A stretch of DNA of 5,102 bases from a virus (IMGVR_UViG_2547132272_000019); one strand, 5' to 3'; counted from the first letter of the stretch, positions 1 to 5,102 are shown. Translations and numbers: made by a program. The notes: generated by a model from the sequence alone, not told the origin.

Positions 1-106
1 TCGCAATGACGAGATTTATCGCCGTCAGCGACAGATGAAGGACGTGCTGGATAGCCTTAATAATCTTGCCGACATCCGCGCTTTTCAGGCTGGAGAGTCA
101 GAATGA
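1..106 (+). CDS. 3' end of an upstream gene (C-terminal 34 codons, ...RNDEIYRRQRQMKDVLDSLNNLADIRAFQAGESE*); start lies outside the window; product unknown
   Basis: Open frame from position 2 to a TGA stop at 104-106. The stop overlaps the ATG at 103-105 of the next gene (ATGA), indicating translational coupling in one operon. Confidence 0.5.
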   Translation, partial: RNDEIYRRQRQMKDVLDSLNNLADIRAFQAGESE

Positions 107-816
107 AATGGGAAAAGGCAATTCTGCGCCCGTCAGCCATGAACATTAAATGCTCTGTGGTTTGCCTGCATCCATGGTCAGAAAATACCGGAAACATCAA
201 ACCATCGGGGCGTTATCTCAGCCCCGAAAATGCTGTATCTGCACTTTTACCCTATCTGAAAGAAAACACAGAAAAGGACATTGTGGCGCTGTTATTTTGC
301 GCTCCTTCTGCTGGCGAGTTTTTATCACTCGCCAGGCAATTTTCAGGCGCATTTCCGTTGCCGGAGGTGGGACGAATGTCCCGCATGATCTCCAGCCAGC
401 TTTCACTGGCCATCAGCAGAATGCAAATCCCCGCCAGACCGGCAACATCACTTCCGGAACCGATAATGCTGTCGACACAGACCACTCGCAGCATGTCGCT
501 GGCGGCAACCATTGCACAGGCAGCCACTCCTGCCGCCACATCACCGGAAACACTGTCATCATCACTGCATCAGTTCATGAATGCGAGAGATAAAGCTCTA
601 CAGGAAATCGCTGATCAGCAGGCTGCACTCCGGCAAAAATTTTGCCCGGTGTGGCGCTTTTGCTACAAGGGAGCCCTCAGCCAGGCCGCAGTGCTGATAC
701 AAAAAAACATCCCACACCCTGAGTGGGTTTTTACAGCTGTGATGCTGTTCGTCGGCGATGATCTCTCATCACTAAGGGAGGCACTACATGACCCAGATGA
801 TTGTCCTTGCGCTTGA
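103..816 (+). CDS. hypothetical protein, 237 aa, with a central Ser/Thr/Ala/Pro-rich low-complexity segment; possibly part of a phage-tail-like module
   Basis: ATG 103 overlaps the upstream stop (ATGA). GGAG at 92-95 sits 7 nt upstream. Same strand and coupled with the following genes. No family recognised from the sequence. Confidence 0.55.
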   Translation: MKWEKAILRPSAMNIKCSVVCLHPWSENTGNIKPSGRYLSPENAVSALLPYLKENTEKDIVALLFCAPSAGEFLSLARQFSGAFPLPEVGRMSRMISSQLSLAISRMQIPARPATSLPEPIMLSTQTTRSMSLAATIAQAATPAATSPETLSSSLHQFMNARDKALQEIADQQAALRQKFCPVWRFCYKGALSQAAVLIQKNIPHPEWVFTAVMLFVGDDLSSLREALHDPDDCPCA

Positions 817-1363
817 CGGGGAAGCCATTCTGCTGCGCAACATCACCGTCAGCGCCACCATGCAACTACCGGACAAAGATATGTCCGGACAGTCAACCAG
901 CACCACGAGCGCCCAGCAGGGAAGCAAGGCTAAAGAGCTGCGCGTGTCGGGGGTTATTGATTTTAACGATGAAGCTATTCTGACCCGTATTTTTCAGCTT
1001 GCGGAGGCAACAGAAAGCAATGGCGCGAAAAAAACATATCGCATTGCTAACGCTACCGCGAAGGCAATCAATATGCGACAGGGGGTATTTTCTGGTGGCA
1101 TTGATGCCACGGAACAACAGGGAAAAATGCACTGGCAGGTCACCTTTACTCTCAGGGAAAAATTAAGCGTGCCAGAGAAAGCGTCTGCACGTAGCGGTTC
1201 GCAGAAAACCATCGCCAGACAGCAGACCCAGAACGGTAGCGAACAGGCACCAGACAAAGGCATGAATACGCAAAGTTCGTTCTGGAAAAAAATCAATGAT
1301 GCCGTTGGCTCTGGTCTGGATGCTGTTGGTATCGGGAGCGTGAAAGAGGAAGGGAAAACATGA
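788..1363 (+). CDS. hypothetical protein, 191 aa; possibly part of a phage-tail-like module
   Basis: Strong Shine-Dalgarno AAGGGAGG at about 773-780, 7 nt before ATG 788. The TGA stop at 1361-1363 overlaps the ATG 1360 of the next gene (ATGA). The 29-nt overlap with the previous gene is consistent with an operon. Confidence 0.65.
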   Translation: MTQMIVLALDGEAILLRNITVSATMQLPDKDMSGQSTSTTSAQQGSKAKELRVSGVIDFNDEAILTRIFQLAEATESNGAKKTYRIANATAKAINMRQGVFSGGIDATEQQGKMHWQVTFTLREKLSVPEKASARSGSQKTIARQQTQNGSEQAPDKGMNTQSSFWKKINDAVGSGLDAVGIGSVKEEGKT

Positions 1364-3057
1364 AATTGATACAACGCTGCATGATTAATGGCGAACGGGT
1401 GGAAATTGCCGATATAAACCTTGTTCTTACCCTGAATGCTGCCGGTCGTGGCTTCATTTCTGTTAATAATCTGTCACCAGAAAAAAGCCTTGCCGGCGCA
1501 ATGGTACAAATTGATCTCGGCCGTGACGGTGAAGTCTGGCGCTATTTCTCCGGCTACGTTGAACGCGACCAACCCGCCGAAAATGGTTCGCGCCGCCTTT
1601 TTATCCGTGAAGCAGCTGCTGTGCTGGATTTTGATTTCCCCTGCTCCATGCAACACCCGACGTTGCGGGAGGTGTTAGATAATCTGGGACGACAAAGCGG
1701 CATCGTTTTTATCACCCCGGACGCGGATTATGTCAACACACCAACCCCCTACATCACCCACAGCGGCAGCGGAACGCAGCTACTCAGCCAGCTGGGGCGC
1801 GCATTCAGTATCAGCGATTACGTCTGGCACCCAATGCCGGACGGTTCTGTATTTGTGGGAAGCGCCGCTGATTCACGATTTGCCAGTATTACGATGCCGG
1901 ATATTCCGCAACAGTACGCTCTCGGGCAAAGCGGCGGAAACAGCATCGACATCATGTTCATGGAAACTGTGCGACCGGGCGTGAATCTTCCCGCCGGGCG
2001 TATTACCCGCGTAGCCCTCAACAACGAGAAAATGACTCTGACGTGGGAGCGCCTTACCGTCACGGGCAGCCCTGTCTCCAAATCACCATTACGCAGACAG
2101 ATGGAAACACAGTTCCCGGAACTGGCCAGCGGCACACTACACACCAGGCTGGCGCGCGTCATTGCACCAACGGAATCCGCCACCCTGGGCGATGTGGCCG
2201 ACAGCTTCCGTCCACGCTACGCCGTGGACGTGCAACTGCTCGATGAGGACGGCAACGATAAAAGCGATACGCCTGTTTACCCGGCAGTCCCACTCCCCGT
2301 CCCGATGGCTGGTAGCGAGGCGGGATGTTTTGCCTACCCGCCGGCAGGCACCATCGTGGAAATATCTAACATTGAAGGGCGCCCGGATAAACCTGTTATC
2401 AGGCAAATCTTACCCGCTGGCCATAACCTGCCTGATGTAAAGCCCGGCGAACAACTGCAGCAACAGCGCGCAGAAGTGTTTCAGCGCGTCACGACTGACG
2501 GAAGCTGGCACAGAGAAACAGACCAGCAAATCAGGGAGCAGTCAGCCACCCGCACAATCAACAGTGATGCAGAAGAGCGCACCACAACAACCAGAACAAC
2601 CACAGTACGGGCAAACGACATAACCAGTGTTCTGGGAACCAGCAAGCTGGCGGCAGGACAAATAGAGCACCTTACTACCGGCCATTACGCGATCGCAGCC
2701 AGCGAGCATATCCAGATGGTAGCGCAGGATTTGCTGACTAAACTCAAAGGAGCAATATCCACGATTGAGCAGGACCTGACTGAAAACGTGGGAGGCCGCA
2801 GAATATGCCGGGCGGACGGCGGTCTGAAGTTTACAGCCCCGACAGTATTTATTGGTCGCGGTGGCTCACGGGAAAAATCCGAACTTAATCTGCTGACGTT
2901 GTTGATTGATATTCTGGATCTGATTCAATTGCTGGCCACGCACACAGCAAACCACACCCACAGCAACACTGGCGCACCAATGAACAGCGGCGAACTTGCC
3001 GCAGATGCCCTGCAGGCTACGAGCCTGCGCGAAAAATACGGCGACCTTATCGCCTGA
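1360..3057 (+). CDS. 565-aa protein, putative phage tail / baseplate-hub (P2 gpD 'late control D'-like) protein; family assignment tentative
   Basis: Long ORF with SD GAGGAAGGG upstream and an ATGA overlap with the preceding gene. The N-terminal segment INGERVEIADINLVLTLNAAGRGF matches, from memory, the I-x-GE-x-V-x-I-...-L-x-L-...-RGF pattern of gpD-type tail proteins. Contains a TTTTRTTTV low-complexity stretch and a His-rich C-terminus (HTANHTHSNTG). Followed by an intrinsic terminator. Confidence 0.5.
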   Translation: MKLIQRCMINGERVEIADINLVLTLNAAGRGFISVNNLSPEKSLAGAMVQIDLGRDGEVWRYFSGYVERDQPAENGSRRLFIREAAAVLDFDFPCSMQHPTLREVLDNLGRQSGIVFITPDADYVNTPTPYITHSGSGTQLLSQLGRAFSISDYVWHPMPDGSVFVGSAADSRFASITMPDIPQQYALGQSGGNSIDIMFMETVRPGVNLPAGRITRVALNNEKMTLTWERLTVTGSPVSKSPLRRQMETQFPELASGTLHTRLARVIAPTESATLGDVADSFRPRYAVDVQLLDEDGNDKSDTPVYPAVPLPVPMAGSEAGCFAYPPAGTIVEISNIEGRPDKPVIRQILPAGHNLPDVKPGEQLQQQRAEVFQRVTTDGSWHRETDQQIREQSATRTINSDAEERTTTTRTTTVRANDITSVLGTSKLAAGQIEHLTTGHYAIAASEHIQMVAQDLLTKLKGAISTIEQDLTENVGGRRICRADGGLKFTAPTVFIGRGGSREKSELNLLTLLIDILDLIQLLATHTANHTHSNTGAPMNSGELAADALQATSLREKYGDLIA

Positions 3058-3095
3058 TCACCTGGACATAAAAGCCACATAAACGCCCATCACAC

Positions 3096-3123
3096 AACGC
3101 ACGGCTTCGGCCGTGCGTTTTCA
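3096..3123 (+). terminator. Rho-independent terminator of the + strand operon
   Basis: Perfect 10-bp inverted repeat aacgcacggc (3096-3105) / gccgtgcgtt (3110-3119) with a TTCG tetraloop, followed by a T-run; lies 39 nt after the stop at 3057. Confidence 0.7.
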
Positions 3124-3188
3124 TATCTGCCACCTGATTAATGCGTTCTGCGCGCCATTCTGGCGCTGTATGCGCACACCGCGTAAAC

Positions 3189-3218
3189 GGTGTGACGTAA
3201 AGCGTGAGGTGACGTAAA
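3189..3218. repeat. tandem direct repeat GGTG(T)GACGTAAA, two copies about 19 bp apart; possible protein-binding sites
   Basis: ggtgtgacgtaaa at 3189-3201 and ggtgacgtaaa at 3208-3218; a further CGTAAA at 3182-3187 sits in the loop of a 7-bp hairpin (cacaccg/cggtgtg, 3175-3194). Confidence 0.4.
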
Positions 3219-3324
3219 CCGCGCTACCCCCTCCAACCCGCGGGTTTTGTGTCGAAACACTTTTTCAGTTTTCTGCCGTGCAAAAATGACCGCCAGCCCG
3301 CGCAGCGACTGAGGGAAAAGCGAA

Positions 3325-3583
3325 GATCTGAAATTTCACGCTTTGAAATTTTTTGCAGTTTTCAGCGAGTTTTTTACGATCTCATAAATGGCAGGAGCAA
3401 TGAAACCGCATGATATTAAAAGAGTTTTCATACTTTACGCGAGACAAAAAAACGATCACGAAAGGATCGCATCAAACAACCATCAAACAGCGAAGTCAGA
3501 CGCGGCGCGGCCTGCGTAAAATTGAGAGTCAAAATTAAACTGAAAAAAGGATCAATACCGCGCCTCGATCGCGCATGACGATC
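3325..3583. repeat. GATC-dense, AT-rich block (7 Dam sites in about 260 bp) with short direct repeats
   Basis: GATC at 3325, 3378, 3454, 3465, 3550, 3567 and 3580, versus about 8 in the remaining ~4.8 kb. Includes catcaaaca x2 (3469-3491), an imperfect repeat ttttt(g)cagttttc (3262-3282 vs 3350-3370), and an A7 run plus 5-bp hairpin at 3446-3469. Confidence 0.5.
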
Positions 3584-3600
3584 TATGCAGCAACAGGACG

Positions 3601-3623
3601 AAAAAAACCGGCGCGAACGCCGG
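3601..3623 (-). terminator. Rho-independent terminator on the - strand
   Basis: GC-rich 6-bp stem ccggcg (3608-3613) / cgccgg (3618-3623) with a CGAA loop. On the - strand it is followed by U7 (the + strand A-run at 3601-3607); on the + strand there is no U-tail. Confidence 0.55.
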
Positions 3624-3664
3624 CGGAAGCATGTATCAAATGCGTGACTGAATAATGTCTGCGG
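3601..3664 (-). ncRNA. candidate ~60-nt small RNA, divergent from the hok promoter; function unknown
   Basis: A - strand promoter-like pair lies about 7 nt upstream of the predicted start, and the strong - strand terminator at 3601-3623 lies about 60 nt downstream. No ORF with an RBS in between. Confidence 0.35.
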
Positions 3665-3670
3665 TCGGGA

Positions 3671-3700
3671 ATTTTACATCAGAAGGCTGATAAGTCTCAA
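3671..3700 (-). promoter_or_regulatory. sigma70-like promoter for the candidate sRNA
   Basis: Read on the - strand: -35 TTGAGA (+ strand 3695-3700), 18-bp spacer, -10 TAAAAT (+ strand 3671-3676). Back-to-back with the hok promoter. Confidence 0.35.
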
Positions 3701-3704
3701 CGGA

Positions 3705-3734
3705 TTGAAACAAGGGAAAAAACCAGGCTAGAAT
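3705..3734 (+). promoter_or_regulatory. putative hok mRNA promoter
   Basis: -35 TTGAAA (3705-3710), 18-bp spacer, -10 TAGAAT (3729-3734). Predicted start near 3741 coincides with the 5' element that pairs with the mRNA 3' end. Confidence 0.4.
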
Positions 3735-3784
3735 TCGCGCGGGTGCCTTTCGGCTGATGGCTGGAGGGAATACCCGAAGGCCGA

Positions 3785-3970
3785 ATGTGGAAAGGCCCCG
3801 AGTCAACTTTAACGTTAACCCGAGGCCCTAGCCATACAACCTTCGCAAGTCGTAGGTTAGCGCCTCCCCGAAAAAGGAGCAAGCGCTATGTCGCAAAAAT
3901 CGCTTACGGCCATTACGTTCTGCGTAACGGCAATCCTCATCATCTGGATGCTACACGGTTCACTGTGTGA
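3785..3970 (+). CDS. mok-like overlapping reading frame (61 codons) for translational coupling to hok
   Basis: ATG 3785 preceded by GAAGG (3776-3780). The frame overlaps the hok start and ends inside hok in a different frame, matching hok/mok architecture. No independent homology recognised. Confidence 0.35.
   Translation: MWKGPESTLTLTRGPSHTTFASRRLAPPRKRSKRYVAKIAYGHYVLRNGNPHHLDATRFTV
3786..3847 (-). ncRNA. Sok-like cis-antisense antitoxin RNA (about 60 nt); boundaries approximate
   Basis: Expected by hok/sok architecture. A - strand promoter candidate overlaps the hok SD. The extended hairpin at 3794-3827 is fully paired only on the - strand transcript (G-U wobbles there are C/A mismatches on the + strand) and is followed by UUU on the - strand. 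Confidence 0.3.
3854..3882 (-). promoter_or_regulatory. candidate Sok promoter
   Basis: Read on the - strand: -35 TTGCTC (+ strand 3877-3882), 17-bp spacer, -10 TAACCT (+ strand 3854-3859). It overlaps the hok SD region. An alternative pair is -35 TTGTAT (3834-3839) with -10 TAACGT (3812-3817). Confidence 0.25.
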
Positions 3971-4028
3971 GATACGGATGAGCTTCTGGGGAGCGGAGTT
4001 TGCGGCGTTCTTACAATGTAGACAGTAA
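3888..4028 (+). CDS. hok: Hok/Gef-family type I toxin, 46 aa (MSQKSLTAITFCVTAILIIWMLHGSLCEIRMSFWGAEFAAFLQCRQ); specific paralog not determined
   Basis: AAGGAG at 3874-3879, 8 nt before ATG 3888. N-terminal hydrophobic transmembrane stretch, then the Hok hallmark SLCEIR and a C-terminal E-x-AAF-L motif (compare Hok ...[22 protein letters not shown]). The ORF is below the size cut-off of the supplied track. Confidence 0.75.
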   Translation: MSQKSLTAITFCVTAILIIWMLHGSLCEIRMSFWGAEFAAFLQCRQ

Positions 4029-4114
4029 GAAAACCGCGACGGGGAAGGCAACTTCCCCGTCAATCGGTTGCCAGGGTAAGGCCGATAAGGCACCCTATAC
4101 ACATCCCAAAGCAG

Positions 4115-4151
4115 AAACCCGCAGCGTAAAACTGCGGGTTTTCTTTTTCTT
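4115..4151. terminator. bidirectional intrinsic terminator shared by the hok mRNA (+) and the convergent yidD-like operon (-)
   Basis: 10-bp stem aaacccgcag (4115-4124) / ctgcgggttt (4132-4141) with loop CGTAAAA. On the + strand it is followed by TCTTTTTCTT; on the - strand by CUGCUUUG. It lies 7 nt from the yidD-like stop at 4158. Confidence 0.65.
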
Positions 4152-4157
4152 ACGCGC

Positions 4158-4391
4158 TCACGATTTGCGACATTTACAAATATGAGGAGGGTAATCTGCA
4201 CCACCATTAGGCGGACGACAGCGATAAATCCGGCTCAATCCTAATCGCCAGCCTTCAAAAAAGCCATAGCGCCTTATTGACACCAAAGTGTAAGCCGAAC
4301 AGCTTGGAGTATAACGACATCTGTTACGAATGCTGGCTGGCGCATGAGCACGATAATAAAGAATCAGACGTATACTAAGCCATTTAAGCAT
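4158..4391 (-). CDS. YidD-family protein (PF01809, putative membrane protein insertion efficiency factor paralog), 77 aa
   Basis: Translation contains the YidD signature ...RCRYTPSCSAY...GW.L...RI.RC.P...GG.D.P and aligns well with E. coli YidD as recalled from memory. Its start overlaps the stop of the upstream 80-aa gene by 8 nt. Confidence 0.7.
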   Translation of the reverse strand: MLKWLSIRLILYYRAHAPASIRNRCRYTPSCSAYTLVSIRRYGFFEGWRLGLSRIYRCRPPNGGADYPPHICKCRKS

Positions 4392-4626
4392 CTGATACTT
4401 TTTTTCTAAAAGTAATCACATAGTATTGAAAAAACTGCGCCTTTCCGCCACCGAAACACCCCGGCTGCTCTTCTATACCAATCGTATCAACCCGTTGAAA
4501 TTCCCAGCCATCCGCCGCCTGTTCATTAACAACATTCTGAAGATATGCAGCAGCTACCCCCGCTTTATTATCTTTTGCCTTTACAGAAATATTCGGCGGC
4601 ACCTGAATCATTTTATAGGTATACAT
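4384..4626 (-). CDS. small conserved hypothetical protein, 80 aa (possibly DUF4177-like)
   Basis: Strong SD AAGGAG 8 nt upstream of ATG 4626. Translationally coupled to the yidD-like gene. Compact globular-looking sequence with a GWE motif; the family call is from memory only. Confidence 0.55.
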   Translation of the reverse strand: MYTYKMIQVPPNISVKAKDNKAGVAAAYLQNVVNEQAADGWEFQRVDTIGIEEQPGCFGGGKAQFFQYYVITFRKKVSDA

Positions 4627-4772
4627 TACCTGAGCTCCTTTAATAAAAAAGACAGTAATAAACGCCCTAAAACAGCCCGCACCTCACGATGCGAGCATTA
4701 GATCACTATGGCAATATGTGGACAACGCGAAAAATAATCCATTATTTTTCATTGCATTACAGCAGTTTTCGT

Positions 4773-4788
4773 GCCACCCGAAGGTGGC
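4773..4788. other. GC-rich stem-loop in the ytfP / downstream-gene intergenic region
   Basis: gccacc (4773-4778) / ggtggc (4783-4788) with a CGAA loop, just after the ytfP stop. No U-tail on the - strand, so it is not a canonical ytfP terminator; it may be an RNA-stability or attenuator element. Confidence 0.3.
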
Positions 4789-4797
4789 GTGTTTATA

Positions 4798-5102
4798 TTA
4801 TGACTTATCCCTGTCTAACCAGTCGCCGCTTTCAATCAGCGTTAATCCATCGACGGGTCGTTGATAAACGTACATCCATGCACTCCCGTACGGCGTCTGA
4901 ATCAACTGGCGCGCGTATTCACCGCCCCTGGTGCGCAAGGCATCAAGTTCGGCCAGCGTGGCGTTGTCAATACGATAAACTTCACCGTGTACCGTTCCGT
5001 TTCCCGGAACTGCGCCTGGATAGTGGCCCAGGCTATACAACTGGTAGTTATCGATACTGAAATCGCCCAGCAACTGGGCATTGGTCATCCAGTGGCTGGG
5101 GG
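4798..5102 (-). CDS. ytfP: gamma-glutamylcyclotransferase-family (AIG2/GGCT-like) protein YtfP, 3' portion; start lies beyond the window end
   Basis: Translation ...SHWMTNAQLLGDFSIDNYQLYSLGHYPGAVPGNGTVHGEVYRIDNATLAELDALRTRGGEYARQLIQTPYGSAWMYVYQRPVDGLTLIESGDWLDRDKS* matches E. coli YtfP as recalled from memory. The frame stays open to the window edge upstream of the track's Met at 5088. Confidence 0.8.
   Translation of the reverse strand, partial: PSHWMTNAQLLGDFSIDNYQLYSLGHYPGAVPGNGTVHGEVYRIDNATLAELDALRTRGGEYARQLIQTPYGSAWMYVYQRPVDGLTLIESGDWLDRDKS

Follow-up and report, generated by a model that had tools for sequence, protein, structure and literature searches.

Positions 3794-3827 of the window (the whole stretch of DNA that was analyzed, 5,102 nt of the viral sequence IMGVR_UViG_2547132272_000019) contain an inverted repeat whose two arms pair fully only when the minus strand is transcribed. 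A preliminary description of this DNA took the asymmetry as the result of selection on an antisense transcript, and predicted a Sok-like RNA of about 60 nt from it. The locus raises the question of which strand's RNA depends on the helix, and of what the direction of the asymmetry says about the function of each strand.

The Inverted Repeat Forms an Exceptionally Stable Hairpin on the Minus Strand

On the plus strand, the repeat reads GGCCCCGAGTCAAC/TTTAAC/GTTAACCCGAGGCC, with three C/A mismatches between its arms, namely: C3798/A3823, A3801/C3820 and C3804/A3817. On the minus strand each of these positions is a G·U pair, and thus the 8-bp outer and 6-bp inner stems originally described form a single continuous stem of 14 bp. 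RNAfold adds two further minus-strand pairs (3793/3828, a G·U, and 3792/3829, an A-U), which brings the stem to 16 bp without a break, four of the pairs being G·U. Both the full pairing on the minus strand only and the equivalence of plus-strand C/A mismatches with minus-strand wobbles were therefore correctly described.

The stability of the two strands was compared over 3790-3831 using RNAfold. The minus strand folds at -26.8 kcal/mol (z -6.95), a value equalled by none of 200 shuffled sequences, while the plus strand folds at -12.2 kcal/mol (z -3.05) with its stem split into 4+2+2+3 pairs. The folding of both strands, which had been proposed as a check, thus favours the minus strand by 14.6 kcal/mol. 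In a scan of all 5061 windows of 42 nt on both strands across the 5102 bases, the hairpin is the most stable 42-nt fold on either strand. It also has the strongest minus-strand bias of all the 42-nt windows, at -14.6 kcal/mol compared to a mean of -1.0 (sd 3.3). The hairpin is genuine and lies far beyond chance.

The Hairpin Lies in the Leader of a hok-type Toxin mRNA

The region surrounding the hairpin, 3705-4148, is best explained as a complete hok/sok-type type I toxin-antitoxin cassette, the features of which are listed in Table 1. The toxin ORF (3888-4028) matches PF01848 (HOK_GEF) with 30 bits against a cutoff of 22 (E 4e-7), as well as phrog_251 (E 4e-22), which carries the label ‘MokW-like host killing’. 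Its product is one residue (R45K) apart from 72_1621, which like 72_1589 belongs to Hok cluster 72 in the catalogue of Escalera-Maurer et al. (bioRxiv 10.1101/2025.08.07.668861). In that study, 72_1621 represents its cluster as a sequence of high abundance, the toxicity assays list a construct of it, and 3 of the 45 Hok homologues tested were non-toxic, none of them from cluster 72 (bioRxiv 10.1101/2025.08.07.668861).

The hok promoter lies 7 nt upstream of the GGGTGCC that begins the mRNA, and this GGGTGCC aligns with position 1 of the Rfam model RF01794 (sok). RF01794 matches 3741-3901 on the plus strand with 36.7 bits (E 9e-6), below its gathering threshold of 59. Members of the subfamily score 31-48 bits, compared to 118 for hokC, 110 for hokB and 89 for the R1-type locus, all on the toxin strand. 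It should be noted that the model is oriented as the hok mRNA leader and, therefore, the Rfam match marks the leader and not the antisense transcript. Two other Rfam matches were set aside as weak: Thr_leader, which we read as the hok terminator, and RsmY, which we read as chance.

Table 1. Features of the hok/sok-type cassette, in order of their position in the window.
Feature	Position	Strand	Remarks
hok mRNA promoter, sigma-70-like	3705-3734	+	TTGAAA, 18 nt, TAGAAT; 10/12 in consensus scan
hok-type toxin mRNA, full length (predicted ends)	3741-4148	+	start from RF01794 (3741), end from terminator (4114-4142)
tac-like 5′ element	3741-3751	+	pairs with fbi in full-length mRNA, or with 3787-3799 in leader alone
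mok-frame ORF, 61 aa (status uncertain)	3785-3970	+	starts at conserved AUGUGG
Predicted Sok-like antisense RNA, ~62 nt	3785-3846	-	alignment with annotated K-12 sokC and sokB; ends placed by homology
Sok-like stem-loop	3792-3829	-	16 bp, 4 G·U, loop GUUAAA; outer-stem columns invariant in 43 distinct leaders
Sense copy of hairpin, weak mismatched closed stem-loop of hok mRNA	3794-3827	+	in minimum-energy full-length fold
Target-type stem-loop, open mRNA form	3822-3866	+	GAGGC/GCCUC and CUAGCC/GGUUAG, CAAGU apical; 15 variant folds and alifold
Predicted single-stranded 5′ tail, recognition region	3830-3846	-	unpaired in fold; segment 3830-3845 variable
Candidate Sok promoter	3854-3882	-	-35 TTGCTC (3882-3877), 17-nt spacer, -10 TAACCT (3859-3854); read from sequence
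hok toxin gene, 46 aa	3888-4028	+	SD AAGGAG at 3873-3878
GC-rich hairpin after hok stop	4038-4061	+	10-bp perfect inverted repeat
fbi-like 3′ element, AAGGCACCC	4087-4095	+	pairs with mRNA 5′ end in minimum-energy fold
hok mRNA intrinsic terminator	4114-4142	+	terminator scan

The 408-nt hok mRNA folds at -173.5 kcal/mol (z -7.2) with its 5′ and 3′ ends paired. GGGTGCCTT (3741-3749), at the 5′ end, is perfectly complementary (9/9) to the fbi-like element. The tac-like element, 9 of whose 11 columns are invariant, also contains GGTGCCTTTC, which matches GAAAGGCCCC at 3790-3799, and the alifold consensus of 42 leaders pairs 3741-3754 with 3787-3799. Two conformations are thus predicted: a closed one in the full-length fold, with the hairpin in the position of the SD/anti-SD (ucb) stem of R1 mok, and an open one in the alifold and single folds, with the tac/ucb and target stems. 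When the shortened mRNA, 3741-4070, is folded, the open form is not that of minimum energy and is seen only in the leader-only consensus. The GC-rich hairpin that follows the hok stop codon is the most stable plus-strand 42-mer (-26.3 kcal/mol) and, by analogy with R1 (PMC1635323), is likely to block 3′ trimming.

A Sok-like Antisense RNA Is Predicted Opposite the Leader

The nearest annotated Sok RNAs are those of E. coli K-12, SokC (GUUCAGCAUAUAGGA-GGCCUCGGGUUGAUGGUAAAAUAUCACUCGGGGC-UUUUCUCUAU) and SokB (GCUAGGUUCAUUCGUU-GGCCUCGGUUGAUAGAAAUAUCGGUCGGGGCC-UUCGUCUUU), as given in RefSeq. The minus strand of the window reads GCGAAGGUUGUAUGGCUAG-GGCCUCGGGUUAACGUUAAAGUUGACUCGGGGCC-UUUCCACAU, and its arms, GGCCUCGGGUU...ACUCGGGGC, are identical to those of annotated SokC and nearly identical to those of SokB; the shared arms can be written as GGCCUCGG(G)UU / (A)CUCGGGGC. 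On the other hand, the 5′ tails are unrelated to that of the window, and the toxins belong to different Hok clusters. The Hok of the window is 40% identical to K-12 HokA.

In the alignment with these RNAs, G3846 falls on the annotated 5′ G of sokB and one position off that of sokC, while the predicted 3′ end, near 3785, agrees with the annotated tails of SokB and SokC. The resulting length of about 62 nt, similar to the 57-59 nt of SokC and SokB, is close to the ~60 nt originally proposed. The predicted RNA, 3846-3785, folds into a 12-nt free 5′ tail and the hairpin (-30.1 kcal/mol, z -4.5). The same architecture is found in R1 Sok, which is 64 nt long and has a stable stem-loop preceded by 11 unpaired nt at the 5′ end, with which it attacks a loop in the refolded mRNA (PMC1635323). 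Within the hok mRNA leader, no segment varies more among homologues than 3830-3845 (0.62 bits per column), which encodes the predicted tail; this variable tail would parallel the 11-nt tail of R1 Sok (PMC1635323).

A minus-strand promoter-like element over the hok Shine-Dalgarno sequence, as claimed in the preliminary description, can be read where it was placed. Its layout is that of sokB, where TTGCCG, 17 nt, TAAGAT, 7 nt and the annotated 5′ G follow one another: in the window, 7 nt likewise lie between the candidate -10 and G3846, and the candidate -35 overlaps the hok Shine-Dalgarno sequence, as it does in sokB. The element agrees with the consensus at 6 of 12 positions, and our consensus scan called neither this promoter nor any Sok terminator at the hairpin. 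Among the 43 distinct leaders described below, the candidate -10 is invariant and the -35 nearly so. The invariance of the -10 alone is no proof of promoter function, since its complement, GGUUAG, is paired in the mRNA target stem. The conservation of both hexamers can also be explained by roles on the sense strand: GGUUAG as part of that stem, and GGAG as the hok Shine-Dalgarno sequence.

This bears on whether the repeat might serve the sense strand only, as the closed stem-loop of the hok mRNA, with a decayed Sok promoter, no functional antisense RNA and a G·U pattern inherited from a Sok-bearing ancestor. The promoter with its 6 of 12 positions, uncalled by the scan, and the poor U-tract would be compatible with such a history, as would the plus-strand hairpin in the full-length mRNA fold, the functional sense-strand mismatches revealed by R1 mutagenesis (see below), and the description of K-12-type chromosomal hok loci as inactive (bioRxiv 10.1101/2025.08.07.668861). 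We nevertheless consider it highly improbable. The -10 hexamer is not only invariant in the 43 distinct leaders but placed exactly as in sokB, and the sequence upstream of R1 Sok (TTGCGC/TATCCT, in our reading) is no better by consensus, yet R1 Sok is described as having a strong promoter. Independent variants with another inner stem and loop keep full minus-strand pairing by means of G·U, and never the reverse. Furthermore, the rest of the cassette is intact, a near-identical Hok is among the constructs of a cluster reported to be toxic, and without repression such a toxin would be difficult to keep.

The 3′ end of the predicted antisense RNA is uncertain, because the tail after the hairpin, UUUCCACAU, is poor in U and has too few of them for the terminator scan. 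An antisense RNA could then be made for which the hairpin, failing the terminator criteria, is no terminator at all. It would run on for about 170 nt to 3624-3607, where GCCGGCGTTCGCGCCGG followed by TTTTTTT on the minus strand passes these criteria, and would be about 240 nt long, possibly processed to a shorter form. We judge such read-through to be improbable: annotated SokB and SokC end 9-10 nt past the homologous hairpin, and most homologues have an unrelated sequence, compared to the window, upstream of the hok promoter. Since most homologues are without that flank, the terminator at 3624-3607 is not part of the cassette. Instead, the hairpin would stabilize the Sok-like RNA and probably end it near 3785.

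At the level of sequence and structure, the features of a cis-antisense Sok gene are all found here, namely: a candidate promoter of its own, a predicted free 5′ tail and a stable stem-loop. The hairpin can be regarded with near certainty as the stem-loop of a small Sok-type antitoxin RNA, antisense to the leader, within the hok/sok cassette, and it is very likely, judging from the sequence, that a Sok-like antisense RNA gene containing it is encoded here.

The Direction of the Wobbles Follows the Strand That Needs the Helix

In order to follow the repeat through related loci, homologues were retrieved with an alignment of 14 Hok proteins. This yielded 87 loci, which reduce to 43 distinct leaders and 15 distinct hairpins; the latter differ in inner stem, loop and length (GAGUCAAC...GUUAACCC, GGAAAACA...UGUUUAACC and others). 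The 15 hairpins of the subfamily, K-12 SokC, K-12 SokB and the R1-type Sok were each folded as single sequences (n = 18). The minus strands fold at -19.6 to -26.6 kcal/mol with 2-6 G·U pairs each, and the plus strands at -8.3 to -15.3 kcal/mol with no G·U pair in any of them. The minus-strand pairing is thus kept in all 18, as expected if homologous loci conserve the helix first noticed in the window.

The individual pairs were then counted in an alignment of 30 distinct sequences, realigned with a covariance model built for the minus strand. This alignment replaced a plain MAFFT alignment of the minus strands, in which the inner stems of two variants were one column off and R1 was misplaced, and an earlier model alignment with weak reverse-strand matches was discarded in its favour. 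Because the R1-type row is badly placed in the final alignment too, inflating the cells mismatched on both strands, the single-sequence folds are the cleaner evidence. The matches of the model to sokB, sokC and the R1-type locus are not independent evidence, since all of them are in its seed.

Among a total of 449 pair cells, 312 are Watson-Crick, 82 are G·U on the minus strand and mismatched on the plus strand, and none shows the reverse pattern. The other 55 are unpaired on both strands, and stem mostly from the internal loop of one variant and from the R1-type row. Canonical cells make up 87.8% on the minus strand and 69.5% on the plus strand. The 82 G·U cells are spread over 10 of the 15 pairs but, as the sequences are closely related, do not amount to 82 independent events. 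C3798/A3823 is G·U on the minus strand in 28 of the 30. The covariation that had been suggested as a further check is present at a modest level: the score is 0.157, which none of 500 shuffles attained (shuffled mean 0.106), and in four pairs both partners change. Its modest size results from the close relationship of the sequences and from an outer stem that never varies.

The stems of the hok mRNA itself provide an internal control. The tac/ucb stem (3741-3754 with 3787-3799) and the target stem (3822-3833 with 3855-3866) have their wobbles on the plus strand, e.g. G3831·U3857 in the window, and for the 5′ hairpin of the mRNA (3739-3780) the plus strand is favoured by 13 kcal/mol. As the mRNA stems wobble on the plus strand and the Sok hairpin on the minus strand, the direction of the bias follows the strand that needs the helix.

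This directionality also bears on whether the repeat could be a palindrome acting at the DNA level, where it would bind a protein or serve recombination, or could have arisen by chance, in either case without a function as RNA. Its position some 320 nt from the prophage-chromosome junction is what such a site might lead one to expect. However, a DNA palindrome should show no strand preference of G·U, and 82 to 0 were counted; its fold ranks first in the window, with a z of -6.95; and it lies inside a leader that matches RF01794 and is homologous to annotated Sok RNAs. This possibility can be virtually dismissed.

Conservation is unevenly distributed over the region. The outer stem, the next four bases, the candidate -10 and the CAAGT at the predicted start site are invariant in the 43 leaders, while the inner stem and loop vary (0.51 bits per column). 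Together with the variable segment opposite the predicted 5′ tail, this pattern fits a diversifying recognition region on a fixed scaffold.

Both Strands Constrain the Repeat

The homologous stem-loop of R1 forms the ‘closed’ conformation, in which the mok Shine-Dalgarno sequence (GAGG) is sequestered by the anti-SD, ucb (PMC9841398). A saturation screen of R1 found seven single substitutions that add pairs in the closed stem and abolish toxicity. Two of these, A106G and C74T, lie opposite each other and close a C/A mismatch, abolishing Hok translation (PMC9841398). When the two loci are aligned on GCCCCG...CGAGGC, C74/A106 of R1 correspond to C3798/A3823 of the window. The R1 leader used for this purpose is 100% identical to more than 2600 plasmids, and its numbering agrees with the positions given in PMC9841398.

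Since closing a sense-strand mismatch abolishes Hok translation in R1, the asymmetry does not come from antisense selection alone. The initial interpretation is supported, every computational check proposed for it having turned out favourably and the wobbles counting 82 to 0 for the minus strand, but has to be widened, the sense-strand mismatches being functional in R1. Both strands constrain the repeat: the sense helix must melt and the antisense helix must be stable, and the mismatches of the former are tolerated as wobbles in the latter. The best explanation is that one hairpin serves the RNAs of both strands, as the stem-loop of the antisense RNA and as a weak closed hairpin of the hok mRNA.

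The similarity to R1 hok/sok (parB) extends to other parts of the cassette. The two have in common a cis-antisense RNA, a predicted one in the window, opposite the hok leader, with its promoter over the hok ribosome-binding region; a free 5′ tail followed by a long hairpin that contains G·U pairs; the core GCCCCG...CGAGGC, including the C/A mismatch on the mRNA strand; and the tac/fbi pairing of the ends, the GC hairpin after hok and the terminator. They differ in their Hok proteins, which share about 39% identity over 31 residues, in the inner stem and loop, which are not related, and in the U-tract, which is weaker in the window.

Based on these comparisons, the following mechanism can be proposed. 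In the full-length hok mRNA, tac-fbi pairing would keep the weak, C/A-mismatched hairpin closed, and the mRNA is predicted to be inactive, giving no toxin. By homology with R1, 3′ trimming back to the GC hairpin at 4038-4061 would remove fbi, upon which the 5′ end of the mRNA is predicted to capture the left arm of the hairpin (3787-3799), and the GAGGC of the right arm to pair with GCCUC at 3862-3866, giving an exposed stem-loop. This order of refolding is the one that we infer. On the minus strand, transcription would start from near G3846, at a promoter overlapping the hok ribosome-binding site, and would give a Sok-like RNA of about 62 nt, with a free 5′ tail of 12-17 nt and then the stabilizing 16-bp G·U hairpin, ending near 3785. 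Its 5′ tail would attack the exposed stem-loop and proceed to a full duplex, in which translation would be blocked and which would be degraded, by homology with the known systems. The direction of the wobbles would then reflect two requirements at once: the antisense hairpin has to be stable, and the sense hairpin has to be able to melt. The transcription of the predicted RNA, its exact ends and its repression of Hok are likewise put forward here by homology.

The mok Reading Frame Differs from That of R1

According to the preliminary description, the antisense RNA covers the mok 5′ region, as in hok/sok, and this holds only loosely. The mok start codon of R1, hokB and hokC lies 7-8 nt downstream of GAGG, where the 5′ end of Sok covers it; in K-12, mokC and mokB overlap the 5′ end of their own Sok by 9-11 nt. 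The window has no AUG or other start codon in this position: no ATG, GTG or TTG is found in the mok frame downstream of GAGG (3822-3825), and the members of the subfamily have no conserved canonical mok start after GAGG. A mok-frame ATG does exist at 3785, preceded by GAAGG at 3776-3780, but it lies upstream of the hairpin, under the predicted 3′ end of Sok. The ORF that it opens is in the R1-type mok frame relative to hok and has no Pfam match.

Where the hairpin is one base shorter, it is the overlapping GUG of AUGUGG that falls into the mok frame. In this way, 63 of 88 homologous loci have a mok frame that begins with AUG or GUG and continues beyond the hok AUG. The remaining 25, among them phage P88 and the Sp5 homologue, have both ORFs ending 19-81 nt short of hok, so that the ORF is not kept throughout.

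A different wiring is therefore conceivable for the prophage Hok of cluster 72, although we consider it rather unlikely. Here, Sok would mainly trigger degradation of the duplex, or its 3′ end would occlude the start of the leader ORF, and the hypervariable tail would set non-cross-reacting types among co-resident cassettes.

Annotation and Prophage Context

The locus is an unannotated member of a thoroughly known system, in a divergent subfamily that scores below threshold, and neither the kind of element nor the mechanism is new. In RefSeq, the homologous locus carries only a ‘Hok/Gef family protein’ CDS and no RNA gene, and the Hok catalogue covers the Hok coding sequence only, with the Sok and Mok of the homologues not delineated (bioRxiv 10.1101/2025.08.07.668861). 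With RefSeq giving the toxin alone and Rfam below threshold, annotations miss the antitoxin part of a prophage hok cassette that is very common, and coordinates together with a covariance model for this Sok subfamily would mend the gap. The locus also shows clearly how a single inverted repeat can be subject to contrary requirements on the two strands: which strand's RNA needs a stable helix can be told from the direction of G·U/C·A substitution, and the adjacent mRNA stems serve as a built-in control.

The cassette is best explained as the last feature of a P2/HP1-like E. coli prophage. Phage baseplate genes lie upstream, in 1-3057, and a search for relatives of the non-coding 3060-3720 among phages found none. 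In a few E. coli genomes, 1-4148 has matches of 94-97.5% within prophage regions, with the homology to E. coli ending at 4148 or at 4095-4098. All 5426 of 5426 complete E. coli genomes match some part of the window; on attributing this universal match to 4149-5102, the cassette becomes the last element before the prophage-chromosome junction. The cassette itself matches 1536 of the 5426, and is found in phage P88, other Xuanwuvirus phages, Stx phages and some plasmids as well. hok genes are reported to be enriched in prophages (bioRxiv 10.1101/2025.08.07.668861).

Another prophage-borne hok/sok pair, hokW-sokW of Sakai prophage 5, has a Sok RNA detected experimentally and a phenotype of its promoter mutant (Takada et al. 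2021, PMC8621323). We considered it as direct support and set it aside, since the primers identify it as another hok locus of the same phage: HokW begins with MKQQKAM and its leader with GCGGGTGCTTGAGGCT (PMC8621323 primers), both different from the window's locus. The homologue of the window's cassette in Sp5 is located between lom and orf66.

Leader of the hok mRNA and its mok-type frame

The Rfam family RF01794 ('sok antitoxin') matches the hok mRNA strand, both in the window and in three further loci (L090, L091 and L093). It spans 157 nt of the toxin leader and not an antisense RNA of ~60 nt. Since the family covers the leader on the hok mRNA strand, the strand of its match is opposite to that of the annotated sokB and sokC genes. 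A strong local hairpin lies at the 5′ end of the hok mRNA, with a folding energy of -22.1 kcal/mol on the + strand vs. -9.1 kcal/mol on the - strand. When the 3′ end of the mRNA is removed, this hairpin is the minimum-energy structure of the predicted fold. It resembles the metastable 5′ hairpin of nascent hok mRNA in the plasmid R1 system.

The motif AUGUGG, preceded by GAAGG, is conserved in the homologues and contains an AUG that overlaps a GUG, each in a different frame. The hairpin variants differ by 1 nt in length, and this difference decides which of the two is in the mok-type frame. This frame is open past the hok AUG in 63 of 88 loci and is not in the other 25.

Features of the window referred to in the text
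Feature	Position	Strand	Remark
Promoter-like site	3700-3671	-	TTGAGA, 18 nt, TAAAAT; 10/12 matches
Strong terminator-like hairpin and T7 run	3624-3607	-	Downstream of promoter-like site
Region of candidate small RNA	3598-3700	-
hok mRNA 5′ hairpin	3739-3780	+
RF01794 match	3741-3901	+
AUGUGG	3785-3790	+
YidD-like, DUF4177 and GGACT/AIG2-like ORFs	4149-5102	-

Related hok loci

Phage VT2-Sakai / Sp5 (L089, 620-915) has two hok loci. The homologue of the window's locus is located between lom and orf66; it is distinct from the published hokW-sokW, which encodes MKQQKAM... In the RefSeq records of P88 and Shigella phage 75/02 Stx, the window-type locus is labelled 'MokW-like host killing'; its product is a Hok-type peptide despite this label. 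Genome contigs entitled Planococcaceae MAG, Vagococcus sp. and Xanthomonas pisi (L002, L003 and L006) encode Hok proteins 72-96% identical to that of the window, and these loci most likely reflect enterobacterial contamination of the assemblies.

Regions flanking the hok cassette

The baseplate gene and hok are separated by 640 nt of non-coding sequence, in which the - strand promoter-like site and terminator-like hairpin could give rise to a small RNA of ~65 nt. Its fold is unremarkable (z -1.47), the candidate region has no Rfam match, and no match to region 3060-3720 was found among 50,697 phage records.

Downstream, the prophage-chromosome junction appears to lie at ~4148. Positions 1-4148 have matches in a few E. 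coli prophages only, while some part of the window is matched in all 5426 of the 5426 E. coli genomes, presumably the segment 4149-5102. In strain STEC316, the end of the related prophage adjoins serS instead, and thus the integration site differs from that of the window.

Just past the hok terminator, ACGATTTGCGACAT lies within the 3′ end of the YidD-like ORF. Here, 4164-4173 shows complementarity at 10 of 10 positions with the region of the hok start codon (3888-3897), and 4160-4170 at 10 of 11 with the predicted Sok start region (3843-3853). This complementarity may be due to chance.
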